Shown piece after piece: positions 3,761 through 51,535 of a stretch of 64,000 nt of DNA; position 1 is the stretch's first letter, and every line of letters starts with the position of its first letter. The translations under genes and the position numbers were made by a program. Location of the stretch: the NCBI GenBank assembly GCA_964016885.1, contig OZ024743.1, positions 342,178,001 to 342,242,000 on the forward strand. The letters are read 5' to 3'. The DNA comes from Eledone cirrhosa. Taxonomy: Eukaryota. The notes under the pieces were generated by a model, which ran no database searches, was not told the DNA's origin, and worked only from the letters and a program-made list of their open reading frames with translations.

Positions 3761-5272
3761 CCCCAAGAGCATACAGCAATGTTACACCTCCCCAATTGTC
3801 GAAATCATTGAAGCATGTCTTCCTTGGTAGAATTTCAATAGCTTCCCTTCTTTAATCATCTGGAACCAGTTCTATATGCCATATTTTAGCAAAGATATAT
3901 ACCTTTTCCTCTGCAGTAACGTCTTGTCGACGGTTTAGCAGATCTGCTGATCTGCTGTGGTAAGGCCCGGTTCAGCTGCCTCAGTGTATCATTTCTTTTT
4001 TTTTGTTGACAGTCGTAATTGCATCATGCTCTCATATATACCGGTGATACATTTAATCGAGTGATATCTGATTTTGTTCGAAACCAAATGACTGTAACCA
4101 AATATTAATGTATGAATGAGAACTCACTGAAAGTGTTCAGCCCATCTCTGGAATTAAATTTCAATGGTTAGTAGGATGTAATCAACTTTGTACATTATTG
4201 GTACGTTTTCGCCCACCTGTTAATTACTTGATGATTATATACAGTGTCATACAATCACTGATGTCTGATGCTCTCTGTGTTTTAATGATGTTGGCTTAGA
4301 AAGATCTCATCTTGTCTCTCTTGCAGCTATGTATGACCCTTTAATGTCAACTGTCAGATTCCATAAGTCAATCAATATCAACTATTCTCTCTGGTTTCCT
4401 CTTCCCCTTTCAATTCCTTCAGTACACTAACATTAATATATACTAACACACAGACACACAGATTAATATGCGTACATAAACACACAAACACATATATATA
4501 TACACACACTCACACACACACATACATATACATACATGTATGTATATATACTCATATATATATAATCATTATCTAATATTTAATAAGAAATGGCTTCTAC
4601 AGGACTAGATCTGTTTAATTGGAATGAAATCATCAGGAATGCCTAGTGACATAAAGACTTTTTGATACTTCTATATAGTTTTTTTCGCCTGTGTAAATGG
4701 GCTGATTAGCCTCATTTGCATACGAAGCTGTATACGTTGGCAAAGTTTGAAGTAAGAAGAGAGAAGCATTGTCCTGATCAGAACCATTTAAGTTCGAAAT
4801 GCATAGACAAGTAACCCTCATGCTCCAGCTGGACTCCGCTCGGCGGCGTTGAGCGCCAGTTTTCTATTGATAGCTGAGGCTTTCTAAATGTTTATTTATT
4901 AAACATGGTGTACATCTTTAGATAAACGAAATTCACATACGCATTTGTATAGAACTATGTCGTAGCTAAATTCTAATTACATTTTAAGTTGAGCCAACTT
5001 ATACAGCTTCGTATGCAAATGTGGCTAATCAGCTTATTTATACTGGCGAAAAAATTATATATTTTCACGTGTCCTAAAGTGCAGCATTAGGATGAGGAAG
5101 AATTGTCCGGATGTGCACCATTTAAGTTCGAAGTGAATAGACAATTATCCCCCCCCCCTGATTCTGCTGGACTCCGCTCGGTGGCGCTGACCGTCAATCT
5201 TCTGTTTATAAGTAGTGCTTTCTAAATGTTTATTTATTAAATATACCATATATCTTTAGATATGCGAAATTC

Positions 5273-5626
<354 letters not shown>

Positions 5627-5705
5627 ATCCAGAGTTCAATCGGGGGTAACCACAGTAAGTAAGGTACTCAATACATAGCAGAGTATAAATGTTTAATATA
5701 GAAAT

Positions 5706-5756
5706 GGCTTCTACAGGACTAGAACTGTTTCATTCGAAGGAAATCGTCAGGAACGC
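5706..5756 (-). ncRNA. Type I hammerhead ribozyme motif
   Basis: gcgttc-CUGACGA-uuuc cuuc gaau-GAAA-CAG uucuaguc CUG-UA-gaagcc. Confidence 0.65.
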
Positions 5757-6399
5757 TGACTGTCAATGTGTTATGGTGGTATTTATACATTTTCTAGTGG
5801 TAAGGGAAGGTGGTGATTCAAAGAATAAATAAACCTTGAAAATTAGCAGTGCCTGTCAGAGTCTATGTGTTTATCTATTGGTACTTAGCGTGAATTTATT
5901 TTGCCTATGTATACTGTGATTGGTATATCAGTATAGGGCAAACAGGATGAAGGCAGATGACAGAAAGTCGAAGGGCAAAGTCCAGAAGAAAGAGGATTTC
6001 CTTCGAAATAACTAGACGTATCTGAGGAACTTGCGAATCCAGAGTCAGGTTCGATCCACAAACAGATTGTACCTCGAGCTGTTCGCCGGAGAAACATTTG
6101 TCATACGTAATAAATTTGTGTTCCGATGCACCACTGATTCTTCGTTTTCCATATCATCATACGCTGCTCCGAAGGAACATAGAGTGCTCAACTGGCATAC
6201 CGCCTATGGACGCATCCAAGCAACCTTACCACAAATATATATATATACATACACATACACGCACCTATACATAAACACGTATACACGTAAACAATATATG
6301 CAAAGCTGATTTTTGTCGAATAAACAAATCGTCAGGGGATTGCCAACCTGGTCAGTGACCATGGATTTAAAAGAGAACAGAGGACCTCTTTATTCAATC

Positions 6400-6630
6400 A
6401 AGAATTGAAAGAGGTAATCCGAGCAAAGAAGGAGACCTGCAAAGCTTAGCTTGGAAATAAGTCCATATTCTTACACTTGTGGTACAAGCAGGCACGAAGA
6501 ATTGCAGCTGTGGGCGTAAAAGCTTCAAAGGGTAAGACACAGGAGGACTTTGTGTTTAAGCTGGAATCCGACTTCAGATCAGCAAATAAAGTATTCTGGC
6601 AGACCATCCTCTCAGTTCGAAATAAGAAAT
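6400..6630 (+). mobile_element. RTE (Expander/Rex3-like) LINE fragment, EN-RT linker
   Basis: Translates as ...YKQARRIAAVGVKASKGKTQEDFVFKLESDFRSANKVFWQTI, resembling the Rex3/Expander 'DFRSASKRFWQT' region. Confidence 0.55.
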
Positions 6631-6909
6631 ATTGTTATACTTGTTCCTAATGTTGCTTGTCTCGAGATCAGCTTCAATTTAGTAGACTTATATTAAAAGC
6701 GTTCCATCCGGACTAATTCGTAACTTTATATACCAAATTTGTTCGACGCATACTTAAAGGGACTGTGGTGTGTAATACGGGTGCTAATACTACCGAGATT
6801 ATCCACGATTATCGACCGTACATAGGCATACTCCTTGACAATTACTATGTGTATATATATATAGGAATGAAAAATGGCGTGCTGCGTTGTTGCGGATGTG
6901 ATACATATG

Positions 6910-7637
6910 AATTAAAAAATAGAGTAAGAAGCCAGTACTATTCGTCATCAGTGATCTTCTGGCCATCATAGGTATTTCTTCGCATTAATGATCATATACC
7001 TTAGGCCAGCGCGAGCAATAACTAAATAAAGTTATTGGGATAAAAAGAATTGGGTGGAGAAAGAGAGACATGTAAACAAACCAGAATGGTAAGGCAACGT
7101 AAAGGGTGAAAAATCAAGTCAGTGATACAAGTGAACATACGATCTGGCGAATCATTGACGAGAAGACGAAAGACGCATCCGAGCCATGCGAAATGTGAGC
7201 AAGAAAAGAATTTCACACAGGTCAGACGGGTGGGAGTGAGAGAGTGTGAGTAGCAGAGAGTGAGTGAGTGAATGTGTGAGGAAGAGGCTAGCCGAGAGAG
7301 GGTGACTAGCAGAGGGGGGGGGGTGAATGAAAGTATGAGTTACAAGGAGAGAGAAGGGGGAGAGAGAAAGAGGATAGCAGTAAGGGAAGAGAAAGAGACA
7401 GGTCACAGCGGATGGAAAAAATATAGGGTTGATTTTTCACCCTTTAAGTTGCCTTACCATTCTTGTTTGTTTACATGTCTCTCTTTCTCCACCCAATTCT
7501 TTTTATCCCAATAACTTTATTTAGTTATTGGTCGTGCTGGCCTGAGGTATATGATCTTTAATGTGAAGAAATACCTATGATGGCCAGAAGATCACTGATG
7601 ACGGATAGTACTGGCTTCTTACTCTATTTTTTTAATT
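6910..7637. mobile_element. Fold-back element (about 180 bp inverted arms, about 370 bp spacer) ending at (TA)n
   Basis: 6910-7090 is the near-perfect reverse complement of 7455-7637. Confidence 0.85.
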
Positions 7638-7756
7638 TATATATATATATATATATATTTATTAAAATAACAGATAAAAGTTTAAGCAAAGAATCGCTTA
7701 TTTATCGTTATCGAGCCTTCTTTGGATTTTAGTCTTCAAATTTATTATTATTACTT

Positions 7757-7801
<45 letters not shown>

Positions 7802-7819
7802 CATATATATATAGTGAAA

Positions 7820-8004
7820 GAATTGTTTCTACTTTAGGCACAAGGCCAGCAATTATCCAGTGCATTACTGGTACTTTATTTTATCGACCCCGTAAGGATG
7901 AAAGGCAAAGTCAACTTCGGCGGGATTTGAACTCAGATCGTAAAGGGACGTAACTATGCTGGAAAGCATGGTGTCCGATCCTCTACCGATACTGCCAATC
8001 CACC
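7820..8004 (-). mobile_element. tRNA-derived SINE with Nin/Deu-like core
   Basis: A-box TGGCAGTATCGGT, B-box GAGTTCAAATCCC, core gcctttcatccttacggggtcgataaaataaagtaccag. Four copies occur in the window. Confidence 0.85.
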
Positions 8005-8009
8005 GCATA

Positions 8010-8330
8010 GTGAAAGAATGAAGAGTAACATGGTTAGCTGTACAAGAAGGGGCTTTATTTCAGGTATTGGCAGTTGTTTCATTGATCTAGAGGCCGCTAA
8101 TCGCTCGAAGTTGCGTCACTCGATCTCCATTACATGATTTACCTCTGACCAAATCCTCAGTATATTCTAATGATTTGATCAGCGGTAAACACTGTTTTTA
8201 AGGTCGAGTGACGCAACTTCGAGCGAGTAACGGCCTTCAAACACACCTGATCAATGAAACAATTTTAATACCCGAAATAAAGCCCCTTGTTGTACACCAA
8301 CCATGTTATTCTTCATTATTTCACCATTAT
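8010..8330 (+). mobile_element. Fold-back pLTR-like element with decayed long-stem-II HHR (8163-8270)
   Basis: Arms 8010-8125 and 8204-8326. Motif tatt-CTAATGA-[tttgatcag...ctgatcaat]-GAAA-CAATT. Confidence 0.6.
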
Positions 8331-8490
8331 TACTCCAAGTATAACCTGACCTGCATAGGAATTCCCGCGAACTCGCTGCTTAACTATGGAAACATCTTCT
8401 TGAGTCAAACAAAGCCGTAAGTTAAAACTATCCACGACGCAGAGTACTCACATCCTCTAACTGGATTACCTATAACGATAACTTGTTATC

Positions 8491-8527
<37 letters not shown>

Positions 8528-9488
8528 CAAGGGGGTGTAAACACAGAAAATATCTTTAAAAATAATAAATAAATTCCAAAAAATTCCCTGTACTTACTAT
8601 ATGTGCCCTTACCGCGGGTTCAGATCCCAAACAATTAGATACTCCAAGCAGATTTTCATTGAGAAAGAGATCATCGTCAGAAGGCTTTTCTCTCTCGGAG
8701 AATATAAAATTACCGAGTTAAAATTACAAACTGGCGCCATACCAAACTGCCCCAGAATGAGAGCAAATGAATGATGAAACAGTTCAGCTGTGGTACCGTA
8801 TGCAGAGGCAAAAAGCACGGTGGACAGGTCAATCCCGTGCTGCAAAAAATAGCAGCCGTTCAAACGACCAAAGTTTTCTCTACCATTGGGGAGAATAATA
8901 ATAAAAGTATGTGTTCCTATATGTAATTAATACACACAGGGGCACAAGTATAGTCCGACCATATGCTAATGTTGATCCGACCATGAGACAGGTTGTACTG
9001 GGTTACATGTTACCAGTAGCACTCAAGAGTGATCCAAGATAGGGCGGAAGAATTCATAAGCGTCAGCGGCCATCACAAAGTGTGTAAATATGTATATATA
9101 CATGTACATATGTATGTATATGTGTATATACATGGGTGCATGTGTGTGTATATACGCGGGGACATAGAAATAGTCGGGTTGGACACCCGATCGCGCGGTT
9201 AAACCAGTGGGAGTGAAGGACCCCTAGACTTTGTCAGGGCATTCTTTTAGAAGGCAACTCAGGAAACTGGGATAACTCCGATATAAAACATGCGGCTCAG
9301 TAGTTACCGATGATGTTGATCTTTTCTTCTTTTCATGTTATATTTACTGTCGCTAAGAGAGTGGGATTGGCTCAGTGTACAGTCGTTCATCACTTTAAAA
9401 AATATCTTCGCGAACAGGCATTGCAGGATAGCATTAATTAATAATTATTAATAATATTATATCCGCGATAACGAGGGGGCAGCCATCA

Positions 9489-14382: not shown

Positions 14383-14429
<47 letters not shown>

Positions 14430-14432
<3 letters not shown>

Positions 14433-14661
14433 ATAATAATAAATTTGAAGACTAAAATCCAAAGAGGGCTCGATAAGGATAAATATATATCAAATATATA
14501 AGAACCGTAGAGGAAATATTTATTAAAATAACAGATTAAAGTTTAAGCAAAGAATCGCTGCTTTCACTCTTAACGGGATCTTCTGAAACTCAGAACTTTC
14601 AGAAGATCCCGTTAAGGGTGAAAGCAGCGATTCTTTGCTTAAACTTTAATCTTTTATTATA

Positions 14662-14665
<4 letters not shown>
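14430..14665. mobile_element. Fold-back pLTR element, CAGAAGA-HHR family
   Basis: Inverted repeat centred at about 14592, with an HHR-like motif at 14597-14644. The family also occurs at 1335-1385, 7660-7750, 11790-11822, 16378-17682 and 17767-17995. Confidence 0.85.
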
Positions 14666-14719
<54 letters not shown>

Positions 14720-14789: not shown

Positions 14790-15165
14790 TTATAATAGAA
14801 TATAAAAGAAAAACGTACACAAATATATACATATACGTGTTCAAATCGCAGGGGACCAGATTCGCTAAGGTGCAAAGAATACTAACTATAGACAATTGGG
14901 TTTGCTTGTATCAATTAAGAAAAAAATCAAGAAAATAAATACAAAGCGGAATTGTGGTAACTACCAATCACCGAATTGTGAATAGAATTACCAATTCAAG
15001 CTCATCATTGGTTTGTGTTTTTTTCTTGATTTTTTCTTAATTGAGACAAGCAAACCCAATTGTCTATAGTTAGTATTCTTTTCACCTTAGCGAATCTGGT
15101 CCCTTACGATTTGAACACATATATGTACATATCTGTGTTCGTTTTTCTTTTATATTATATTATAA
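14790..15165. mobile_element. Fold-back element flanked by (TA)n, no HHR recognised
   Basis: 14790-14945 is the reverse complement of 15012-15165. Confidence 0.8.
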
Positions 15166-15186
15166 CTATAATTATATATATATATA

Positions 15187-15281
<95 letters not shown>

Positions 15282-15496
15282 GTTAAAAATGTACATCCAC
15301 ATATGTATACTGAAATACTAGTATGCATATGAATACACACACGTATACATATGTAGATGTACCAAGTTTTTCACTGGTCACTTTACCGTGAGTGTCCAGC
15401 TATTCTGTATGTAAACACACAGACAAACCGGTTTTTAGAGTCATACTGGCTTTTGAGGAAACACCTTTCCTCTATTCTCCAGAAAGCCAGACAAGG

Positions 15497-15541
15497 AATA
15501 TTGAACTAGTTTCGTTGTTGTTACAACTCATCAGCAATATT
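15497..15541 (-). ncRNA. Type I hammerhead ribozyme, canonical core (inverted copy)
   Basis: Reverse complement of 16002-16046. Confidence 0.85.
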
Positions 15542-16001
15542 TACCTATCTACCGGCCTTTCTGGAGAATCGTAAAAGCACATATCGTTATATGCTTTTTC
15601 TATGAAAATTAGTAGTGGGCAGACTAATTTGCATAGAGTGTGAGTACGTACCGGTTCAACGGAGACGATAAAAACAAATAACGAAACGAAATTAAATTTC
15701 GTTTCGTTTGTAACTCACTTTTGTATATGTATACGTGTGTGTATTCATATGCATACTAGTATTTCAGTATACATATGTGGATGTACATTTTTAACTTAAT
15801 TGTTTAAGCGTCAGTCATACAAAAGTGAGTTACAAACGAAACGAAATTTAATTTCGTTTCGTTATTTGTTTTTATCGTCTCCGTTGAACCTGTACGTACT
15901 CACACTCTATGCAAATTAGTCTGCCCACTACTAATTTTCATAGAAAAAGCATATAACGATATGTGCTTTTACGATTCTCCAGAAAGGCCGGTAGATAGGT
16001 A

Positions 16002-16046
16002 AATATTGCTGATGAGTTGTAACAACAACGAAACTAGTTCAATATT
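16002..16046 (+). ncRNA. Type I hammerhead ribozyme, canonical core
   Basis: aauauug-CUGAUGA-GUUGU aaca ACAAC-GAAA-CUAG-UU-caauauu. Stem I extends via ttctccagaaag/ctttctggagaa. Confidence 0.88.
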
Positions 16047-16334
16047 CCTTGTCTGGCTTTCTGGAGAATAGAGGAAAGGTGTTTCCTCAAAAACCAGTAT
16101 GACTCTAAAAACCGGTTTGTCTGTGTGTTTACATACAGAATAGCTGGACACTCACGGTAAAGTGACCAGTGAAAAACTTGGTACATCTACATATGTATAC
16201 GTGTGTGTATTCATATGCATACTAGTATTTCAGTATACATATGTGGATGTACATTTTTAACTTAATTGTTTAAGCGTCAGTCATACAAAAGTGAGTTACA
16301 AACGAAACGAAATTTAATTTCGTTTCGTTATTTG

Positions 16335-16377
<43 letters not shown>

Positions 16378-16381
<4 letters not shown>

Positions 16382-17680
16382 TAAAATAACAGATTAAAGT
16401 TTAAGCAAAGAATCGCTGCTTTCACCCTTAACGGGATCTTCTGAAACTAACAAAGTCAATCTGTAAACGCAGAACGCCACAGACCACATCTTAAACAAAA
16501 GATCTGAGGCAATTTCGACTTGTAAACATGAATTGCACAAAACTTTCCTGTATTACAGCCTCACATTATACCCTAACGGATAGTACGATCTATACGTGGT
16601 TATTTTACGTCTTGATGTGGTAGCTAAGTGTATGTTTTGTTTATACCATTACTTATTTGCATAGGTAAGTATATATTACCTGTATGTTTTGTGAAGGTAC
16701 GTATACTTTCTCATACGTATATTTGATTGATTATGTTATGGCGTATAAATGTTCTATATATTCTGGTACATATGCTTTGGTTATGTGTATACGGGAGTTT
16801 TGCGTCTGCGTGAGTATGCAGGTTCGTACGTATGTAGAGTGTGTGTATATATGTACTTCATGTTTTTGTTGACTTACCTCTCCGAACATTTGTGTATTTA
16901 CATGTAGGTATGTGTGTGCGCTTGTTATATACGTATTTATTTATTTATATACGTTTATTTAATTATTTATTTATTTGTATACACGCACCCACACACACAC
17001 ACACATATTTATATGTGCGTAGTTTTGTATACCTATTGCAAGTGTTTTGCGTATGCTTGTGTATGTACATATTTGCATGCGTGTATGCATTTATTTAATT
17101 TCTATTACGTCTGTATTGTATTTATTTACTTTATTCTTACTCTGAAGCGGAGATTCATTCGGTTTCCTAGTTAGAATTTAGTCTACGACTTCAGCTATAC
17201 CATTTACGTGGATTTGTCTTTGCTTGCAATTGTTTTCCACGCTCCACATATGACGTATTATCTTCGTTTGTCCGTTCATTGCCAGAAAACGTCTCTATGA
17301 ACCACCTAAGAGAACATTAGTCTACTTCTTTTATACCATAAACGTGGTTCTGCCTTTGCGCGTAATTGTTTTTCACCGCTCCTATTAATGACGTATTATA
17401 TTCGTTTGTTCCCGTTCTTTGCCAGGGAACGTTTCTACGAACCAAAGTATCGTCTTCCTGTCTTCCTCCGGTTGCAACGTTTTTTAAAATATCCACTTCT
17501 GCGTTTACAGATTGAATTTGTTAGTTTCAGAAGATCCCGTTAAGGGTGAAAACAGCGATTCTTTGCTTAAACTTTAATCTGTTATTTTAATAAATATTTG
17601 CTCTACGGTTCTTATATATTTGATATATATTTATCCTTATCGAGCCCTCTTTGGATTTTAGTCTTCAAATTTATTATTAT

Positions 17681-17682
<2 letters not shown>
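16378..17682 (+). mobile_element. 5'-truncated Nematis-like PLE: last codons of the endonuclease, about 1 kb 3'UTR and pLTR, with an inverted 5' pLTR
   Basis: About 16480-16560 encodes DHILNKRSEAISTCKH (compare LLNRKSEIFSSCPH at 29490-29535). Inverted arms at 16378-16473 and 17497-17594. Confidence 0.75.
16398..16448 (-). ncRNA. Hammerhead-like motif with variant core CAGAAGA
   Basis: aguuu-CAGAAGA-u ccc guuaa ggg u-GAAA-GCAG cgauucu UUGC-UU-aaacu. The partner copy is at 17523-17573 (+). Confidence 0.65.
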
Positions 17683-17747
<65 letters not shown>

Positions 17748-17766
17748 GTATATATATATATATATA

Positions 17767-17995
17767 GTAATAATAATAAATTTGAAGACTAAAATCCAAA
17801 GAGGGCTCGATAAGGATAAATATATATAAAAAAATATAAGAACCGTAGAGTATATATTTATTAAAATAGATTAAAGTTTAAGCAACGAATCGCTGCTTTC
17901 ACCCTTAACGGGATCTTCTGAAACTCAGAAGATCCTGTTAAGGGTGAAAGCATCGATTTGTTGCTTAAACTTTAATCTTTTATTTTAATAAATAT
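17767..17995. mobile_element. Fold-back pLTR element, CAGAAGA family
   Basis: Near-identical to 14430-14665, with apex at about 17923. Confidence 0.85.
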
Positions 17996-20192: not shown

Positions 20193-22260
20193 TTGCGAGG
20201 TTTTTGATATGAAATCGTGTGTCGAAACTAATATTGTTATACTTGGGGAGGGTCATATTTGTGTAATATTGCCAGAATTAATAACAGAACACACTCACTG
20301 TTTGGTTGGTTTTCGCTTTTCGCTTCTGTGTCTTTTATATCGGTAATTTAATTTATTCGGTCCTCAATGTTGCCATTGACTAACCAACGGTCAAAAACAC
20401 AGATACAATATAGACACCAACACATATATATAGTTTATCAAAGTTCTTTCGTTGCACCTCTGCAACATCGTCAGTGGTGCTATTGTTTCGTCCCGTTGCA
20501 TTGTACTTTCTACGCCATCTTTATTTAGTCTGTTTATATATTTATTTATTTGTTTATTTTGTCTTCTTTGGGCATGCGTTTGCGTGTGTGTATAGTGTTT
20601 TGTTTGATGTGTGTTGGTGATTGGGTGACTGTGTATTGGTTAATGTATTCTATCTTTACTAGTGTGTGTTTATATGTGTTTGTTGTTATTGTGCTTGTGT
20701 ATGTATTTAATTATTTATCTATTTATTTATTTATTTATACTTCTCTTAGGTCAGTGTTGTTTGTTTGGGTGTTGTTGTTATTCCATTCATTTTTTCTGTT
20801 TAGCCTTGGCCTTCTAAGTTCTATTTCACTGGCCTCTCTGATTTGACTATCTGCTGGGTCATTTCTATGTTTAGATATTATTCTAATTTCTAAGTTGTCT
20901 ATGTTAACGTTGTGTTGTTGTCTGGCATGTTCGTATAGTACTGAACCGTTTGTTAGTCCTTTTAGTTCCCCCAGTGTTGGTCTATCATTTAACCTATGCT
21001 ACGAGCTGTCTCGCCTATGTATGTGGTTGTCATGTTACTGCAAGTACCCTATGTACATCTTATGCTATAGACTACTTTTCTAGTTTTACAACTTATCCGG
21101 GGGTTTACCTTACATATGATACATTTCCTATTAGTACAGTGGGTTTTCTTAAAAGGGTAGGTTTTGCTGATCAGTGATTTTATGGTGGTTCCTGGCTTTT
21201 CTACCACCTTAATCTTTAAGTGGGTCTTTCTCAGGGCCTTTCTACACTGATTACCTCATTTCCCTCCAGGGGTAGCGTCAACAAACATGACACTCTGGTA
21301 TCTCTGGTTGTCGTACCATGAGGTGGCTTTCCTTATATTATGTCTAGCCCTATCTAAGCTATTCCATGATTTGCTCCTGTATAATGGGCAAATTCCTTTC
21401 ATGTCCAGTTCTATGAGGGTCTTATACTTCTCAGTGGCTCCTTGGTATACTCTGATTATGTCTCTTTGGTTGTAGCCAGAGAACTGCATGCGGGTGATGA
21501 AGTGTTGGATGTGTCTTTCCATTTCTGTTGGGTCGCACATGCGGGACACGTTCTTCATCACTCGTCCCAAGTCTGCGATCAGAATATTAAACTTAGCACT
21601 ACTGGACATTGCTGAGTTTTTGAGTATCAGGTATTTGGAGGCCATGGGTTTAACCTAGTGTGAGTGGAGAATTTGGGCTCTCTCGTCTATAGTGTTAATC
21701 CAGAGTTCCGTGTCTAATACAGGTAGTCTATTGTTAGGATGTTTGGAAGGGTAGTTGATAGTTACAGTTCTCCTCTGGTGTATGGAATTAGCTATCTGCT
21801 GGATGCTTCCAATGTGCTACGTAGCAATGTGCTACGTTCTAAATCAAACTTGTTAGTGCTCTCTTGTGGGGATTTTCTTATAACTATATTGATATCGTCT
21901 ACGTAACGAGAGAACATGATGAGGTCTATGGGGCTCTTATTACGGAGATCTTTAAGTCTCCTTTCCCATCATACCATAAAAAGGTTGGCAACCTCACCAG
22001 CTATGCTGACGCCAATGGCTGCTCCCTCATTTTGGGTGTAGATCTTCTTGTTGAACTTGAATATGTGGCCCTTTAGGGTAGTTTGATAGTAGCCCCCATT
22101 GCATGTGCGACCATTTTTCTTACCTGATCATAGTTTCATGGGAGTCTTTTTAGCCATTGAGGTTATGGTGGGAGGTCTACCTCTTATGGCTCTATTGGGG
22201 CAGAAACGTCTAAGGTCATGGCTGTCTAGGTAGTCAGTGTCGTAGGTAAGTCTAAGTAGT
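20190..22260 (-). mobile_element. Neptune-like PLE, 5'-truncated inverted copy (RT C-terminal half, GIY-YIG, 3'UTR, pLTR)
   Basis: RYVDDI, LPVLD and PMASKYLI...SAMSSSAKFNIL...FSGY...VMFVDATPGGK. Nearly identical to 24690-25860 reversed. It ends at (TA)n and has an HHR at 20438-20477. Confidence 0.92.
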
Positions 22261-24066
22261 ATCTGTGTTTTTGATCGTAGAAATGATGGCGTAGAAAGTA
22301 CAATGCAACGGGACGAAACAATAGCACCACTGACGATGTTGCAGATGTGCAACGAACGAACTTTGATAAACTATATATATGTGTTTGATTCTATATTGTA
22401 TCTGTGTTTTTTACCGTTGGTCAGTCAATGGCAACATTGAGGACCGAATAAATTAAATTACCGATATAAAAGATACAGAAGCGAAAAGCGAAAACCAACC
22501 AAACAGTGAGTGTATTCTGTTATCAATTCTGGCAATATTACACAAATATGACCCTCCCCAAGTATTACAATATTTGTCTCGACACGATTTCATATCAAAA
22601 ACCTCGCAAAACTAATTCATCGCCATTATGGCATTAGCTTGTGCCAAGCTGAAAGGTTATTGAACGGCACTGTTTTCTGTTATATAAAAACTACAATAAC
22701 AACAGAACAAATCCGCTTCTTAAAACACTGTGTTTCCTCCAAAATATACACAACAAACATATCAAAACAAGTAAATAATTTATTTTTGAACAAAACACAA
22801 GCTGAACGACTAAAACACACAATAACAGTTAATATGAAAAGAACAAACATACACAAAAATCAACCAACTTTACAGACAGAAACGCATTAACGGTAAGGAA
22901 GTCCAAAATCTCACCACACCCAACGAGAGAGATGACTTCATGAGCTTCATCCGACGTGAAACGAAATACGCCCGAAACGAATGCAATAGGCATTTCAATA
23001 AGAAATTAGAATGGATTAATAAGAAAAAACTAGAAGAAAGGAAAATAGAATATTCTCAAAAATACCCAGATAACATCAACAATATCCGTATGACTGATGT
23101 AAAACTACCGGAAGAATTTAACAATGACAACACAGTAAACATTTATGGGAACACTTTAATCAGTGAACAAGAACAACAAATCCTGCAGCTACCACCAAAA
23201 TTTGCCATCTACAAAAAGATTAACCCTATTGAGCTGGAAAAGTGTTTCACAAAAATACGTTGGAATGCAAAAGTAAACAACAACAACAACTATACGGACA
23301 ACAACAACAATAATAACGGTAGTAGTAATATAAACAATAACTCTGAGTATAGAAATAACAGCTATAATAGTAATAGTCATAACAATAACAATAGCTGGAG
23401 AGGGACAAATAGTAATAATGGTAATAATACTAACGATAGACAGAACAACAACAACAACCACAATAATAATAATAATAGAAACTACAGACACAGCAGCAGC
23501 GACCACAGTAGTAATAACAGTAACAATACGAATAACAACAACAACAACCACAGTGGTAATAATAGAAATAATACATGTAGCAACATTAATGATAGACACA
23601 ACAAAAACAAGAAACATAATAAAAGTAACAACCACAATGGTAGAAATAACAGTAAAAACAACAATCACAGCAACAATACATCTAGCAATCATAACAACAA
23701 TACATCTAACAATCACAGCAACAATACATCTAGCAATCATAACAATAATAATAATGCTAATGATAGGAACAACAACAACCACCATAATAAAAATAATAGC
23801 AAAACACACAACTATGACGATAGATATAATGACAACCCTTAGAGAAACTATTCTTCAACCCAGCTGACAAAACATATAAGACGGGTAATATCTATCCTAC
23901 GAGGTTACCCTTTAATAAAAGAGTTTGCATACCACAACAAATAGATGACGAGACAGAGGCACAGTTCACCATAGCTAGAAATAAGATTAGACAAATAATA
24001 GACCGGTTTACTAAGAGACAGAGCAGACCAGAGATCCAACAACTTGGGAGGAAACCTGTAGAAGGC

Positions 24067-25203
24067 TTGGTTAGCCTCAAGCAGCGCACAAGGGATGGTG
24101 AGGTAGTATGTCTACCCACGGATAAGTCTGGTAGGATGTCAATAGATAGCATGCCGAACTACATCAAGGCTATGCAACCCCACACCACCAACACGAGCGA
24201 AATTGCACAGCAAATACATGATGGGAGAGAGAAAATCTTCAACGCTCACATGATGATGTGGACTGACATCCTAAAGCCAAGCAGACGCACTGCCAACAAC
24301 TTCCAGGCGTCTAACAATGGCATACCACCCTTGTATGTGCTCGGCAAAGACCACAAGACAGTCGACGGCACGACAACAGGACCACCAACAAGACCCGTAT
24401 GCGGAGCAAATATAGCTAGCAACTACAGGATATTCCACTTCCTCTCAATGGTTATACGCCCCATAATCAAGATGTCCCCAGATGTATCTGACAGTACAGA
24501 GGACCTCCTCAGCAGAATCAGTGAGTGCAACAAAAACAGGAACCTATCCAACTGCATAATAGGCAGCATGGATGTGGTATCACTGTACCCATCCATTAAC
24601 ATTGATTTTGCCGTGGAAAAATCTGTGGAGATGATCAGTGAGAGTGAGGTGGAGTTCGGCGACGTCGACACAAAGGAACTGGGCCTCCTACTTAGACTTA
24701 GCTACGAAACTGACTACCTAGACAGCCATGACCTTAGACGTTTCTGCCCCAGTAGACCCATAAGAGGTAGACCCCCCCCCCCCACCATAACCTCAATGGC
24801 TAAAAAGACTCCCATGGGAAGGTGGATTGGGTGGACCAAAGCTATACGGACCACCCATAACAATGATCAGTTAAGGAAAATGGTCGCACATGCAATAGCG
24901 GCTAGTATCAAAACTACCCTAAAGGGCCACATATTCAAGTTCAACGAGAAGATCTACACCCAAAATAAGGGAGCAGCCATTGGCGTCAGCATAGCTGTTG
25001 ACGTTGCAAACCTTTTCATGGTATGGTGGGAAAGGAGACTTAAAGATCTCCTTAATAAGAGCTCCATAGACCTCATCATGTTCTCTCGTTACGTAGACGA
25101 TATCAATATAGTTATAAGAACATCCCCACAAGAGAGCACTAACAAGTTTGATTTAGAACGTAGCACATTGCTACGTAGTACATTGGAAGCATCCAGCAGA
25201 TAG
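24067..25203 (+). pseudogene. PLE reverse transcriptase core (frameshifted at both ends)
   Basis: TDKSGR, KDHK, RPV, GSMDVVSLYPSI, QNKGAAIG...ANLFM, SRYVDDI. Confidence 0.92.
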
Positions 25204-25628
25204 CTAATTCCATACACCAGAGTATAACTGTAACTATCGACTACCCTTCCAAACATCCTAACAATAGACTACCTGTATTAGAACGTGTCCAGCATGTGCG
25301 ACCCAACAGAAATGGAAAGACACATCCAACACTTCATCAACCGCATGCAGTTCTCTGGCTACAACCAAAGAGACAGAATCAGAGTATACGAAGGAGCCAC
25401 ACTGAGAAGTATAAGACCCTCATAGAACTGGACATGAAAGGAATTTGCCCATTATACAGGAGCAAATCATGGAATAGCTTAGATAGGGCTAGACATAATA
25501 TATGGAAAGCCACCTCATGGTACGACAACCAGAGATACCAGAGTGTCATGTTTGTGGACGCTACCCCTGGAGGCAAATTAGCTAACTAGTGTAGAAAGGC
25601 CCTGAGAAAGACCCACTTAAAGAATAAG

Positions 25629-27724: not shown

Positions 27725-27782
27725 TATAAAAATTATAAAAAATAAACCAAAGAAGCCTTCAATACATCAAAAGTCTTTATTA

Positions 27783-27820
27783 GCCAACAATGTTTCGTCC
27801 TATTAAGGACTCATCAGGGC
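27783..27820 (-). ncRNA. Minimal type I hammerhead ribozyme, canonical core
   Basis: gcc-CUGAUGA-GUCC uuaaua GGAC-GAAA-CAUUG-UU-ggc, in sense orientation about 60 nt from the PLE 3' end. Confidence 0.88.
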
Positions 27821-29425
27821 AAGTAAAGCTACAAGAAGCACTATCGGCCAATACAAGCCAAAAACTCAGAAGAATATGGAGTATACATCTATTAAAGCTT
27901 AGGAAAGATATCAAGGAAAGGTTGGCTAAGATTAAGAGTGAGCAGTTACAAACATAGATATAGACCAAATAGCAAGGAAGTGATTAACATGCTGAACCCA
28001 CATTGCAAATATTGTATAATGCAAAAACTTGAAACACAAATGGTAATATAATGCGAGAATTACAGTACGATATAGAATGTAATATAATATAATAGATGGT
28101 GATAATAAAAAGCTTAATATATGTATATATATAAATATCTATACATATACACATTAGTACAAACACAAACTAACACTTATTAAGTATTTAAATATATATA
28201 TATATATTGTTTACAGTATAATATAATAAAGATAAAAATAAGAATAAAGATAAAAATAAAAATAAAATAATATATAATTCCCTGTCAGTGTGCATAAACA
28301 ATATAGAAACATTATAATAACAATATTATAATATATTGACATCAAAAGATATACAAAATTACATCATACATATAATTCAAGGTTAACAAATAGTATAAAG
28401 TTTTACACAGAGTAAGAAAAAATCATATAGAACTAAATTGTGTTGAAAAAATATCTATATCATTGTAACAAATACACGGAGGTCAAGTCATTTTACATTG
28501 GCATAAATATTACCAAAATATCACAAAATATTACAAAATATAACAGAACAGTACCTCAAATAACAGACATATATTAAAATCTATAATACGATTACATAAA
28601 AATGATATGATATAACAACGTTAATATCAAATAGCAAGCAGAGTGTAAGGAAATGCTTAATATATATATTTACGTGGTTGACATACACAGACATATATTA
28701 ATGAAATTACATGATCAGACAGACAGCGTGTGGTAGTAAAAAAAATAAATTAAATAAACAGGAGATCGAAAAACAAAAACAAGTATATTTACTTAGGTGT
28801 CACAAGCGGTTACGTAAAAGAAAAAAAGATAGAAATGTAAGCCGGAGAGTTGACTAGAAAACCTTTTTAAATTAATTAATATTAAAAGTATTTAAAATAC
28901 ATATTTAGTCACTTCAAAATTGGCTAGTGTTTAAGTCATCAAAATCGTATAAGTTTAAGATATCTCAATAAAATTATCTAGAATAGAGTAAAATATGCTC
29001 CGTTCAGTCGAATAACGTTATCAAATAAAAGGACTCTAAATAGAACTATGGTAGACCAATGGGAAAAGAAAGAAGAGAGGTTATGGAGGATAGGAAGGAG
29101 CATAAAAGTAAAATCAATATATTATATAATATCATAAAAAGGAGCATAAAGGTGAAATTTATATATAGTATAATAGAAGGGGCGGATATTAAGTGTGTAG
29201 AGGAGGAGGTTCATTAGTTGAATGAGACTCCAAACAAAGTATTTAATAAGATATAAACTCATAAGGTGTTAGTAGTGAAACTATAATAATGCTTAAGAAG
29301 ATAGATAGGGTATGGTATCCAAAAGACTATGGAAACTAAAATCGAAAAGCTGTAAAAAACTAATAATAATAATGATGATGGTAATCAAAATGAACCTAAA
29401 CAAAAAAGATAAAGAAATATAGCAG

Positions 29426-31600
29426 CTAATGGATACGATTTAAACTACCAGAGCTTTTAGGTCTATAATAGAAGAAAGAATTAGAAATCGCATGGGGGCA
29501 GGAAGAAAATATCTCAGACTTTCTATTAAGCAAAACTTCCCTAGAGAAAATTATAGAGTGGGTCTCTAGGATACAGAGATTACATAATTTAGTGTGTATT
29601 GATAGGTTATTAGAGCGTGCCACTATACGCCAATTAAGGCTATATGGCATACCAGCCACTTTAAGATCCCAGATATGGTGTGCTAAAGAAGTAGACTTCT
29701 TAAACTTAACATGCTTAAAATTAGAGATATGAGAATTAAACCTATTTTAAAAGTATTAGATGTGGAGCCTATATATGTGATATTAGAAGAATTAGTCTTA
29801 ACTTCACAAGCATAAACAATGTTCCTAGAGAGGCAGTGACCATTTAAAGGGCAGTTAATACTTACTCTACAGTTACACTTCCGGGTGCTATTGACCGGCT
29901 GAATGAGTGATGCATCACTCCTAGGGTTATTATAAGATAAGGTCTGCTCAGGTGGTAAGGCATTAATGGATCTATCAAGACTAGTAGTACGCAAAGAGGA
30001 GTAGCTGTCCCTAATTTTCCTATTGTTAGTGCTAGCTAAATGAGAACTAATATTAGGGGTGGTAGAGAATGATAGTTTAATTACATTTTTATTAAAAATA
30101 CCATGGTATTTATTAGAAGGAGGGAAATTTTTCTCTAAGATAGAAAAGAAAGACCTAGGGATGTTAGTTAATACTTCATGATCATAAGGCGGGTTAAAAT
30201 AAGTATTGAGTCTCCTCCTATTTCTATCCTTACCAACTCTACCGTTATCCAGTATCCCACTAATAGGATCAGGGTTACTACGAGGACTAGTTGAAACAAC
30301 ATTATTAGAAGCAGCCAAAACCCTATTGAGCCTCCTTCTGTTTCTACCTTTAGTATATCTACTGTTATCTGGAATCATATCAATAGGATTAGGGTTACTA
30401 CCAGGATCAGTTGAAACAACACTATTAGAATTAGTAAAAACATTACCACTGGGTGAGCGATCAGAGTGCCTAACTTGTTCCCTAGAACTAATCCCGAAAA
30501 GTGTACCATTAGACACACTATTACGATTACGGTAGCTTAACCTATGGATGGGTTCGGATACACCAATGGGATTTCTACGATTCTTATGCTTTCTACTCCC
30601 ATTTATGGCCATATTATGGGATATTATGTTATTATTATTATGGGTAAACGGAGACTTTCTAAGGTTGTTCTCATTATAACGTATTTTACCAGAGTAACGA
30701 GAGTTAGCTAGGGCATTATTATAGTACTCCGCATGTGAATTAAATATTCCTATATCCTTAGAGAGTGTGGAAATTCTATTAGATACACCGTTAATTATAG
30801 GGCTAATCATAGATTTGGGGTGGTTAGAATTGGGATTAACATAAGAGAGTATCTCATTTGGCTTATGGAAGGGTTTATAACTATTAGTGACCAAGTCCAA
30901 AGTCACATCTAAAAAGTTGACCGCTCTATCATTTCTATCAATCGTGATCGAAAGGTTAAAATTTTAAAAAAATGTATAAAGTTTCTTCCTATTATGCACA
31001 ATGTTATTGGTGCTAGAGTTTATCACAAACAATGGATCGTCACGATAAAGTCCGCCTTTAAGGTGCGGAAAGGTAACATACAGTTCATTAAGGAGGAACA
31101 GCCCAACAAGATCAGTTACCTGGGCTGAATCACTCGAACCCAGTGAGTGTAACGTCGAAGTTGTTGGGTGTGTTTTTACGCGTCCAGAGTGTATCCTCAA
31201 ATTTGATGATAGTCCTACGGGCTGCTAGTATAACATCAATCTGCGGTCGTGTAAGGCTAGACACTCGCATGGCCATAATTAAGGCTTTATTAAGGAGGAT
31301 AGGTGAAATCGACGTGTAATAGGCATCAATATCAAACTGGATAAACCTACTAGACTAAAGTTTATTAATACCAGAGAACCAATCTATAACATCCTTAGTG
31401 TTCCCCCATAGATTAAAATGAACCTTTTCCCTAACGGCTGGTATAATCAGGTCAAGGATTTTCTTACTAATTATAGCTATATCAGACTTAGAAGGACTAA
31501 TGAGTCTAACAGAAGGATTACTAATGAAGTCTACCTTATGATCCTTAAGAGTGAATCTCGGTTCCCTAGGGTAATATGGCTGGGTATACTTATAATTCTT
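29426..31600 (-). pseudogene. Frameshifted RT plus GIY-YIG ORF of the Nematis-like PLE
   Basis: ORF pieces 30964-31200, 29683-30906 and 29426-29659 join into one protein across frameshifts. Confidence 0.9.
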
Positions 31601-46440: not shown

Positions 46441-47300
46441 TAGTATGTATGTATGTATGTATGTATGTATGTATGTATGTATGTATGTATGTATGTATGT
46501 ATGTATGTATATCTCTTTCTCTTAATTTCGAGTATATTTTTTTGACCGGCCACCTTCCTGGTGGCAAGGTTGTAAAAGAATAGAAATTGTCATCCCTTGA
46601 ATCGCAAGAATGTTTTGCAAATTTTGAAGGTGCCAGCTGTCGCAGCCATTTGTAAACTATGAATTAGGGAGCTGCGCTCTTTGTCCGCAAATCCAAGTTC
46701 AGTCATACTTTGGTCCAAGTGGGTTGGTACATAACCCGTAGCTGCAATAATGATGGGTATGAAGCTAAAGGTGTATCTTGGATACTGGATTTGTAAATTC
46801 CTCATCAATGATCCGTAGATGTCCTCCTTCTCCTGTATTTTTCTGACAACGTTTACATCAAGTGGGCAGCTGATCTCCACAACAGAACACGTTTTCAATG
46901 TGTGGTCCCAAACTACAATATCAGGCCGGTTGTGCTTTAATTTGGTGGCAGTTTTTATTTTCAGGTTCCACCAGTATTCCTTAGTGCCATCTGTCTCAAT
47001 ATATTCTTCCTCGTTTGTTGTTAATTTTGTTTTCCGAAATGCGTTCCAGATGGTTGTATGTATGTATGTATGTATGTATGTATGTATGTATGTATGTATG
47101 TATATCTCTTTCTCTTAATTTCGAGTATATTGTTTTGACCGGCCACCTTCTCATCGTGTCTCATGGAGAGGTAGTAGCGAGATGACATTCATTCGCAGCT
47201 GGCAACAATGTGGCTTACATCCTCGATCTTTGTTTTACATAGCCTACATTTATTGTCAGCTGATGGCCCTTTTGTGCAGCAGATATTTGGTAGTGAGTTC
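46441..47300 (-). mobile_element. R4/Dong-like LINE family A, 5'-truncated (CCHC plus restriction-like endonuclease), (CATA)n tail
   Basis: NKCRLC...HIVASC...RHD, WWN...HNRPDIVVWD...CSVVEISCPLD...K. Interrupted at 47056-47150. Confidence 0.88.
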
Positions 47301-47584
47301 TTATGCATGTATGTATGTATGTTTGTATATATGTTTGTATGTGAAAGGCCCCCAGTTGTTGTCACAACACCTTTCTAGGAGAGGGAAACTGAAAGTGGTA
47401 GAGAGAGTGGGAGTGCTCGAGTGCAAGGCATTTCCCCACTTAAAAATCCTTCAAAGTATAGGCATTGCTTGTTTAGGATACGTTACAGGTTCGTGTAGCT
47501 GGCCGTAGCCTAAAAGTACACCATCTTCTCTAATCTGACAAGCGATTGCAATACTCTTAGCGTAGTTGCAGTCATCATGTATGT

Positions 47585-50500
47585 ATGTTCTTCTGGTTTT
47601 ATAATTTCACAAATGTTTTCCCAATAGAGAGAGAGTCGGTTTCTAATAGACACAAGACTGTCTCATTGGAATTTACACAACATCAACTAGGTAGATTATG
47701 TATGCATCCATGCATGTGTATATATGGATGTTATTGTATGTGTGGATGTGTATATGCTATGTATATGTACATGTGTATATGCCATTATTAGATGCAACAT
47801 TTTTGGAATGTTTTACATATTTTTATTGTTCCATTATTGGATTCTACATGTAATTACCTAACTAGTTGTGTTCTTTCTGTTCCTGTGAAGCCCAGCTTCT
47901 CAAGATTTGTATTGAGGCAGTTACTAACATATCCCAGTGTCCCAATAATCACAGGCATAAATCTGAAGGTGTAATCAGGGTGGAGTATCTGCAGATTTCT
48001 CATCTGTTCTGCATAAATATTCTCCTATTCTCTAATCTTTGATATTATATTGGCATCTGCTTGGCAGCTAATTTCCACTACTATGCTTTCTTCTCCCTGT
48101 CCCATATTATAATATCTGGTCTGTTATGCCTGCATTTTATTGGGGTTTTTACTGGAACATTCCACCACTATTCTTTCATATTATGTACATGGATGTCTTC
48201 CACATTGCTGTAGCTTTTAATGTGTTTATTATCAGGGCTATCGTTTCTACGGATTGCATTTTACAGTGTTCTGGCCACTACATCATGCCTCATAGATAGA
48301 TAGTACCGCGATGACATATTTGGACAGCTGCTGATAACATGGGTGACATCTTTGATGTTAGTTCTGCAGAGTCTGCACTTGTTATCACATCTAAGTGTTT
48401 TGCCTGCATCCCTATCTCTTTTATGAATCAGTTATTTCGTTTTAATTTCCTGTTCTTGGATTGCAAAAGCGTATCCTTCAAAGTCGGAGCCATTATAGCG
48501 GTTGTTGGTCCAAGATAGACTACTTTCCTTATTACTCTCACTCTGGAGCTTTCTGGCAACATATCCATGCATGACTTTTTGCTGATAAGCATGCAGTTTT
48601 TCATACATGGATTCACTGCGATACTGCTGAGTGACTTCCCTGGATGTGAGTTTTTTATTATCACACAGGGAATATCTCTCGAGGAGTTCCTTCCCAATTG
48701 TCATGATCTTATCTGTTTCATGCAGATAGACTTGCTCGAGAGACGGGCTCCTACGCTTCGAGGTTCGTAGATGTCGGAGGGATATGATGCGACATTCAAA
48801 TGTTGTCTGGACTGATGTTAGGCCTCTGTCTCCCTGCTTACGTTTCAAGGAAAAGCGGTCTATGTCACTGTTGATGTGGAAGTTTCCGGCGTTGTTTAAT
48901 ATTTTTCGAGTTCCAACATCAACTGCTCGGATTTCGTCTATCGTGCAATTGAGTATTCCAAACGTTGGTGTTAGGACAGGCACAGCAAACACATTGTGAG
49001 CCACTGTTTTGTTTTACGCAGAGAGTTCCGACGACCAAATCTTTCTTAATTGGGTGTAGTATTCCCTGGTTACGCGTTCCTTATTACAGATACCATTATA
49101 GGATATGTTCTCATCTATCCCCAGGTATTTGTAGCAGTCCTCGCCAGATATCGGTGAAACAGTTAGGCCATTGATGACAATGTTGCTAGAATGGGTTGTT
49201 GTTTTTCCCCGCTTTACAGTCATGTAGGAGCCTTTATCTTGGCCAAACTCCATTCCTAAATCCTTTGAGAACGTTGTAACCAGGTCAATATTTTTCTTCA
49301 TACCATCCATGTTCTTGGCATAGAGTTTCAGATCATCCACAAAGAAATTATGGGTTAGGTTCATATTTCTGTCCTCCTGTGAGCGAATGATGTATCCTTC
49401 ACATTTCTTGAGCAGAAGGGACAAGGAGTTTAATGACAAGATGAATAATATCACAGAGAGACTGTCTCCCTGAAATATACCCTTGCGATATTTTATTTTA
49501 TCAGTGAAAATAGAGTCCTCCCTCTCCGTCTTTAACCTTAGGATAGTAGCCCAAGAAGAAGACAGCTTTTCTATGGGTCTGATAATAATGTCTGGGACTT
49601 TAGCAAGCTGGGGGGCCTCTATCATCCAAGAGTGCGTAACAGAATCGAAAGCTTTCCTGTAGTCCAGCCAGACTGAGGCCATATTCCTTCTAAGTTGTCG
49701 TACTTCCGACATCGCAGTTTTGTTGATTAGGAGTTGTTCAGCACATCCCCAAACCCCTTTCTTTCCAGCTGCTTGTTCATCTGTGATGATGTTATTATTT
49801 TCACAGTGATCTTGGAGGAATAGGTTCAGGCAGGCTCTATACATCTTATCCATCAGGTTCTGGCATGCATTGTGTCGGTAGTTTTTTGCCAAGTGGGTGT
49901 CTTTGTTCTTGGGGACCAGTAACGTTTGTGCTAATGTCAACCATCCTGGTATAAGGGTATCTCCCTTAAGAACTTGTGGATAGAAGCCAGTAAGATACCT
50001 CCGATAGGATATCAGCTTTTTGTACCAGTAGCCGACAATCATGTCTCTTCTTAGTGTTTTCTTATCTTGGAGTTTTCCTATCACAGTCTCAAGGGTACCC
50101 TCACTTATTTAGTATGTTTCTGCTGTAGTGTAGGAGCAATAGTTCTTTCGGATTTCTTTTAGCCAAACTGCATCTTTGTTGAAATTATTCTTTCTGGGAT
50201 GGAGCCTCAGTGACACTTATTATTTTGTTCTTCATATCTCTATAAACTGATGTTTGGTTTGTTTTTCGCTAACAGCTCTCAATTCTTGTTTGAGGGTGAT
50301 CAGCTTATATTGAAGAGTTCTGGTTCTACTATTACCAAACATCGTCTCTATTTTATTTTTCACTCTTTGTTGGTGAGGAGTGAGGTCTTGTTTGTGTTTT
50401 TCGTAGGTCAGCAATCTATTTTTCTACTTTAGATATATATGATGGTATTTTTGGTGGGGTTTTGTTCTTGTTAATATCTCTGCTATCACCAAGATAATGC

Positions 50501-51535
50501 TTCACTGTCGTGCTAAGGCATATAAACAGGCGTTGATTTGCCAAGATGTTGGGGTTTTTATCCGTCGTAAATATTCATCCCCTATTTCGTCAATAACACG
50601 TAATATTTCATTATTTGTTTTTTTATTAAATATTAATACGTTCAGCAAGAGAGATATTTATACATGAATTAATTTCTCTCTGGAAGATTTCGTTGAGGGA
50701 AATTTTCAATTGTTTATACTTTTGATTATTATCATTATCGATAGTATTTTCCACAACAGTCGAGGTAGACTCGGATAGTACATGTGCTGTCAAATTTCTT
50801 GGATTACTATTATTATTTCTTCGATTACTATTATTATCGATAGTGTTTTCCCCAGCATTCGAGGTAGACTTAGATGGTACACGTGGTGTCAACTTTATTA
50901 CAGGCATAGTTGTTTCAAGGCATTGTTCGACCTGGCTGCTAGGAAGTCTAGTAGCATGGCGACCTGTAGCACGTGTTGTTGATCCCATGTTTGTTGTGGG
51001 GGACCTACAATTAATAATATTTATCTAATTTTTACGCTCAACAAACGTGGCTTGTTGGCATAATTTTTTCTCTGTGAAATAAATTAGCTCTGGGTGCATT
51101 TCGTCCCAGTGTAGCTTCATTCTGTTCATATAGCCAATGGAGGGATTGTTTTTTGCCATTTTATAACAATTAAATAAATCATCATTAAGTTCGCAACTCC
51201 AAGAGAAATGCGATTTATAATTTCGGTTTCTTCTGTAGCTACAACTGAATAAAGTTTGTTTACCTTTCTCATTGTTTGTCTTCGATACTTCCTTAATTTT
51301 GTTGTTGATGTTGTGTTTAGCCATGCTGTTTGTAGCAAATCCTTGTGAAATGGATTATCTATTTAGTCGGATATCTCTACAAATTCGAATAAAAGGTGTC
51401 TTCAGAAGATATAGTTAGAAGAATAACCAGTTATTCAATATGACTGTAGTTGTGGCATTACTGTCGGAGATAGTATTCATCTTAAATTTAATAAGTAGTC
51501 TCCCACGCCAAAATATGCGACTGATCGCATTGACT
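47585..51535 (-). mobile_element. R4/Dong-like LINE family B, apparently full length but decayed, flanked by (CATA)n
   Basis: N-terminal Myb-like W..ELN..L..CY...GYM.RM; RT WLDYRKAFDSV, KGIFQGDSLS, FFVDDLKLYA, YKYLG; CRLC..H....C, RHD, NRPDII. (TATG)n lies at 51547-51620. Confidence 0.9.
49014..50084 (-). pseudogene. Non-LTR reverse transcriptase domain (R4 clade-like)
   Basis: Motifs listed above. Continues by frameshift into 48432-49004. Confidence 0.92.

Follow-up and report, generated by a model that had tools for sequence, protein, structure and literature searches.

A young 466-nt hammerhead-bearing repeat of Eledone cirrhosa, a candidate retrozyme with the insertion ends of PLEs

Metazoan non-LTR retrozymes are non-coding, low-GC tandem monomers with one type I hammerhead per unit and a self-paired fold, present in thousands of copies in genomes that also hold PLEs (PMC7229834). 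The 466-nt repeat reported here has all of this in common with them and, as far as sequence defines the class, is a metazoan non-LTR retrozyme, very probably PLE-mobilised; the element itself is of the kind to be expected. Its monomer is longer than the retrozymes of PMC7229834 (about 170-400 nt when expressed, 150-450 bp as repeats), and we found no account there of opposed arms, of a pair of fixed ends or of targeting to (TA)n. The circular RNAs of PMC7229834 were seen by northern blot, whereas the 466-nt family is known from genome sequence alone. The axolotl hammerhead HHR_Amex1, like that of the 466-nt unit, has a helix III with a palindromic loop, and the axolotl motif cleaves well only as a dimer (PMC7229834). 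Newt satellite 2 (cited in PMC2220036 and PMC7229834) likewise has a weak-helix-III hammerhead acting as a dimer, with a reported internal snRNA-type promoter; the promoter of the 466-nt unit is a candidate, a conserved octamer motif. Vertebrate non-LTR retrozymes are also PLE-dependent hammerhead tandem units, of 51-972 bp, a range that includes 466 nt (10.64898/2026.07.22.740005). Their link to PLEs consists of co-occurrence and pLTR similarity, while that of the present family consists of insertion footprints and one chimera, no homologous pLTR having been found in the sampled loci. PLE-driven copying of retrozyme circles was proposed in both papers; we found insertion footprints in neither, a point on which the supplements could bear.

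The EN+ PLEs, as described for Poseidon PAc (PMC11167929) and for Naiad, Chlamys and Neptune (PMC8557442), share with the 466-nt family partial tandems, an inverted 5'-truncated arm, a one-sided tail, AT-rich or (TA)n targets and internal RT starts; non-autonomous head-to-tail copies are found in Chlamys, e.g. MRC1. As described, PLE insertions contain a truncated copy in inverted orientation and have a tail on one side (PMC8557442). Purified PAc makes a nick in each strand of AT-rich DNA, and its two internal starts on the RNA define the tail (PMC11167929). In contrast to these elements, the 466-nt family lacks an ORF, its tail measures about 70-75 nt instead of 30-40 nt, and both arms are often multi-unit. 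Judged by its genomic copies, the repeat behaves like a non-autonomous PLE.

The window, the whole stretch of 64,000 nt that was analysed, contains at 15151-16381 two opposed arms of one 466-nt unit, located between two (TA)n runs (Table 1). The arms overlap by 2 nt at their inner junction (direct arm from 15725, inverted arm to 15726). The 3' end of the inverted arm (15276) is the 'short' end of the family, S, and that of the direct arm (16341) is its 'long' end, L. Positions 15725-15875 and 16191-16341 are identical over 151 nt with a period of exactly 466, and no run was found with a period of 464, 465, 467 or 468. Apart from two mismatches (15450/16093 and 15652/15891), the inverted arm 15276-15726 is the reverse complement of 15817-16267. 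These values confirm the period of 466, the near-identical copies and the partial tandem plus inversion stated in an earlier note on this DNA. The insertion differs from four sampled loci at one position of 458 and is therefore young. Stop-free frames on the circle do not exceed 60 codons, and the earlier view of the unit as a retrozyme-type tandem monomer that is young, does not code for protein and carries a hammerhead is supported. The octamer ATGCAAAT, which we take to be a putative snRNA-type promoter element, is present in 112 of 123 locus majorities and in 11 of 12 rows of the two-family alignment. The tail between S and L is among the least variable parts of the unit, and we infer that site S is a second RT start.

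Table 1. Features of the retrozyme locus, in window coordinates
Feature	Position	Strand	Remarks
Left (TA)n target flank	15151..15275		
Inverted arm, 451 nt	15276..15726	-	Unit positions 408-466, then 1-392
Type I hammerhead, inverted arm	15497..15541	-	Core at 15534; predicted cut after 15504
Direct arm, 617 nt	15725..16341	+	Unit positions 316-466, then 1-466
One full 466-nt monomer	15876..16341	+	35% GC
Octamer motif ATGCAAAT	15909..15916	+	Candidate internal snRNA-type promoter element
Type I hammerhead, direct arm	16002..16046	+	Core 16009-16015; predicted cut after 16039
Long-range helix, 16097-16104 with 16279-16286	16097..16286	+	Closes multibranch domain; compensatory changes in sister family
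Small hairpin	16261..16274	+	Loop and 3' side contain site S (unit positions 389-397)
PLE-type tail, about 70-75 nt between S and L	16268..16341	+	With 13-bp hairpin 16301-16329
Right (TA)n target flank	16342..16381		

The direct-arm hammerhead consists of stem I (16002-16008/16040-16046), stem II (16016-16020/16025-16029), GAAA (16030-16033), the CUAG palindrome (16034-16037) and GUU (16037-16039). It had been called canonical, which is correct for the core and stems I and II; helix III is a single pair with a palindromic loop (CUAG), and the match to Rfam Hammerhead_HH9 (38.6 bits, E 5.8e-8) lies under that model's gathering score of 52. Rfam gave no match at gathering score in the 64-kb window, and the microRNA-family matches obtained at a loose threshold were discarded as hairpin noise. 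Each unit contains one type I hammerhead, and successive hammerheads are spaced 462-470 in the arrays of the family. The fold of the monomer has a z score of -11.0 when linear and -12.6 when circular (60 shuffles), with 69% of the positions paired; the four internal pairings quoted in the earlier note are all present, and all occur in the minimum-energy fold. By RNAalifold counts, 24 of 84 consensus pairs show double changes relative to a 420-nt sister family, among them pairs in stems I and II of the hammerhead and in the long-range helix; as a comparison of only two lineages this is support and not proof. Within the 466-nt family alone the figure is 4 of 140 pairs. The likeness to viroids that had been suggested extends to the branched fold with its compensatory changes and ends at the ribozymes: pattern scan and Rfam placed a hammerhead on one polarity of the unit only and did not find the two-polarity ribozymes of a viroid-like replicon.

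The assembly searched comprises 3.0 Gb and contains 4,898 exact copies of the 41-nt hammerhead (control, 0). Exact L/(TA)n junctions number 2,129, a lower bound for the insertions, most of which lie in (TA)n; the S junction was counted 776 times on the forward strand (reverse counts overlap). Older subfamilies are 87-95% alike, and the 420-nt sister family is collinear with the 466-nt family and about 61% alike. A degenerate hammerhead pattern covering both families gave 39,854 matches. A search of the openly accessible literature found no published description of the 466-nt family or of two-armed retrozyme insertions.

Of the 143 loci analysed, 38 were the highest scoring, 26 were taken in order of position and 79 were chosen for having an L end. 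L100, which looks like a duplicate of L099, was dropped, and records that overlap at one locus were either merged or entered a single time. The first 64 loci have 117 arms, of which 58 end at L and 53 at S (111 together), and 101 of the 117 run into (TA)n. L corresponds to unit position 464-466 and S to 389-397, about 70 nt upstream. Contiguous two-armed loci combine L with S in 92 of 100 cases and have one odd end in eight; L+L and S+S were both found 0 times, S+S being unable to show among the 79 loci chosen for an L end. Several seemingly one-armed loci carry a tiny S arm. The inner ends are scattered over the unit, and the joins mostly have a 0-9 nt overlap. The sister family ends at aligned L and S sites, 56 nt apart. 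Target duplications, seen as shared flanks of 12-14 nt that may include microhomology, occur at six loci outside pure (TA)n (L027, L032, L035, L037, L051 and L063); in pure (TA)n, as at the window locus, such duplications are unresolvable. The earlier note had stated that the arms begin and end at different points of the unit, by circular permutation. The ends do differ, and mapping them on the circle at the sampled loci recovered L and S, two fixed, family-wide sites that rule out free permutation and form a PLE tail signature instead. ORF-bearing PLEs of the genome have the same layout of two ends in (TA)n, with tails of about 40, 88 and 95 nt. The pairing of L with S matches the PLE tail, which is made by two internal reverse-transcription starts (PMC11167929), and the retrozyme insertions were very probably mobilised by a PLE.

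Boundaries other than L and S number 44; 19 of them have no (TA)n close by, and a search of these 19 with four PLE proteins gave one match. The chimera is one of 143 loci. At this locus, L092, a retrozyme L arm stands opposite a PLE arm with an ORF fragment, termed Neptune-like on the cysteine motif before the GIY-YIG domain alone, after the description in PMC8557442. The PLE arm consists of 39 nt of the unit fused to a 5'-truncated PLE with 1 nt of microhomology and no (TA)n spacer, and it ends at the PLE's own short end, in (TA)n. This is the trace that RT switching from PLE RNA to retrozyme RNA would be expected to leave; the alternative is a nested insertion plus deletion. The unit at L092 belongs to an older subfamily, and copies of its PLE family are 85-99% alike and mostly broken; none of 20 further loci of this PLE has a retrozyme arm. 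A related PLE family (about 51% amino-acid identity) has many near-identical copies and an intact 777-aa frame, and is a candidate helper of the young retrozyme copies. By eye, the ends of two young PLE families (777-aa and 1217-aa frames) show no likeness to S or L. The sampled loci, 1.49 Mb in all, yielded no autonomous PLE whose terminal repeat is homologous, and the best non-clan match of a profile search of these loci was no better than E 0.014. L112, with a unit arm and the PLE family of L092, was considered as a second chimera and set aside as ambiguous because it combines L+L ends and a fold-back junction. In L055 the unit lies next to a full-length PLE that was rejected as a partner, since this PLE inserted separately and has a hammerhead and ends of its own.

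Opposite arms of a locus differ by a median of 0.57%, compared with 2.2% between loci of one subfamily, and the variants of a locus recur in both of its arms. Four arrays, of 7-20 pieces, are invariant throughout. In the 20-piece array L061+L062, two A>G changes that are absent from the other 63 loci of its set occur in every covering unit, in both arms. Substitutions were counted with 17 of 140 loci left out (outside three large clusters, or too short) and with pieces under 100 nt and columns beside gaps masked. Locus-fixed sense changes comprise 36 A>G versus 14 T>C (p 0.003; by set, 22 versus 7, and 27 versus 12 in the second set alone), whereas unit-private changes show no excess (60 versus 67). 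Changes confined to a single locus show a modest excess (13 versus 4, p 0.049; Fisher versus unit-private, p 0.037), for which neither set is significant by itself, and no neighbour preference was found at A>G sites. The A>G pattern fits edits on one RNA molecule that was then copied to every unit. Together with the variants common to both arms and the absence of a register effect between them, this favours one RNA monomer, fairly likely a circle, as the template. The earlier note would have held against a circle genomic copies that are always attached to a PLE ORF with fixed termini. The termini are indeed fixed, the unit is the terminal repeat of an RT plus GIY-YIG ORF at none of the 143 loci, and fixed ends do not refute a circle, because PLE RT starts internally (PMC11167929).

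A template of long linear read-through transcripts is unlikely; the repeat would then be a non-autonomous PLE without any circle, its arrays regrown by unequal crossing-over and its hammerhead incidental. Block duplications in several long arrays agree with such regrowth, as does, for the transcript, the finding that PAc in vitro does not require hammerhead cleavage and has uncleaved RNA as its main substrate (PMC11167929); non-autonomous Chlamys PLEs insert as head-to-tail multicopies, and their clade is described as lacking canonical hammerheads (PMC8557442). The editing-type A>G excess, however, is locus-fixed and not unit-private, minor alleles common to both arms amount to 11 in 81 loci with 4 in register versus 2.5 expected, and compensatory change keeps the hammerhead across families about 61% alike. 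Compared unit by unit, the arms differ by 0.71% in register versus 0.74% (49 loci, p 0.58), an absence of register effect that argues against a linear multimer of differing units; a perfectly homogeneous source array, copied as a linear transcript, would give the same outcome. Repeated multi-unit haplotype blocks were found in L074+75, L080, L113, L132 and L153, and by this record some long arrays also grew as DNA, by block duplication, a process from which the length and the homogeneity of an array can both result. Very unlikely is a hammerhead-cut linear monomer as template, with multimers built by an RT that, on reaching the 5' end, jumps to the 3' end of this monomer or of a further one. 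Switches of template do take place (L092; mixed haplotypes in L049), and known retrozymes have linear monomers alongside their circles (PMC7229834). Against this, the 4,898 hammerhead copies are exact across the cut site, units are far more alike within an insertion than between loci, and inner ends fall at the cut in 7 of 184 cases versus 4.3 expected; with no scars or truncations enriched there, the cut monomer is disfavoured. It is extremely improbable that the units are orphaned pseudo-LTRs of an unsampled ORF-bearing PLE of the genome, as the resemblance of Xenopus retrozymes to PLE pLTRs (10.64898/2026.07.22.740005) and a weak hammerhead-like remnant in the 3' UTR of the L092 PLE (79% over 29 nt, E 0.14) might suggest. 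The 143 loci mentioned above speak against it, as do the precise head-to-tail joins of the units and the same non-coding organisation of two families about 61% alike.

The whole account, in which a young, high-copy, non-coding repeat borrows the RT-endonuclease of a PLE and a single circular RNA monomer is likely copied into (TA)n, is considered fairly likely. Tandem copies would be transcribed, possibly from an internal octamer-type promoter, and the transcripts cleaved after GUU by hammerheads that probably pair as dimers through the CUAG palindrome; of Xenopus retrozyme dimers, only one of nine was cleaved (10.64898/2026.07.22.740005). A host ligase would close the cut monomer into a circle. 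At an AT-rich target, the PLE protein would nick the two strands and start two cDNAs, the first primed at L and the second at S. Both would travel a variable distance round the circle before the two cDNA 5' ends are joined by microhomology; some arrays were later lengthened by block duplication at the DNA level. The chances are evenly balanced for a broader reading, namely a long-lived circular-RNA clan (about 40,000 hammerheads, at least two families, its own promoter motif) that parasitises Neptune-type PLE enzymes, with a dimeric RT priming both nicked strands at two internal sites and rolling round one circle, and A-to-I edits of that RNA fixed in every unit of both arms. If this reading is true, the genome records rolling-circle target-primed reverse transcription directly, and L092 names the helper clade. 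The return of animal retrozymes to DNA by PLE RT copying of circular RNA has so far been proposed (PMC7229834, 10.64898/2026.07.22.740005). In the 466-nt family the inferred RT start sites are defined, some copies are very young, candidate helpers with intact ORFs occur in the same genome and one chimera indicates a clade, which makes the proposal directly testable in the existing in vitro PLE assay.

Some further observations were made on RNA and substitutions. A single 496-nt contig of run X4 (466+30, a closed unitig) was examined as an RNA circle and is explained as a collapsed tandem, since the other repeats of L045 are present in the same run at trace depth. None of the listed runs that contain the unit is recorded as RNA, which counts neither for nor against a circle. 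In L061+L062, A>G changes fall within the octamer motif, and the array may be promoter-dead. Unit-private sense changes comprise 107 G>A versus 66 C>T (81 versus 50 outside CpG), with hot spots at unit positions 188-191 and 434 (window 16063-16066 and 16309); RT error bias or cDNA deamination could account for the excess. An array at G000:C1:5738326-5752444, partly in L080, has a 31-unit arm opposite a sub-unit arm, and the 10 units examined show repeated haplotype blocks.

Other elements occur in the window and in the sampled loci. A second type I hammerhead lies at 27760-27835 of the window (minus strand), with its core at 27817, just before a (TA)n run and about 1.9 kb downstream of a PLE-like RT/GIY-YIG ORF remnant (29683-30963, minus strand), of which it is probably the terminal repeat. 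Another (TA)n-nested family with opposed arms and apparently two 3' ends is present at 14409-14669, 16374-17597 and 17619-17995; the copy at 16374-17597 is directly to the right of the retrozyme and has a hammerhead-like CTGAAG motif near 17142. Opposed, frameshifted PLE copies occupy 21256-25589; their intact relatives elsewhere have a 1217-aa frame with a C-terminal GIY-YIG domain, and the two ends of this family are about 95 nt apart. L055 contains at 5221-8975 a near full-length PLE of another clade with a 738-aa frame and an inverted arm; both of its terminal repeats have a hammerhead, and its tail measures about 88 nt. In L073 (8709-9695), a hammerhead-like motif recurs at about 310 nt. 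A broken non-LTR retrotransposon with an RVT_1 domain (E 2e-18) is located at 46590-51024 of the window, on the minus strand.
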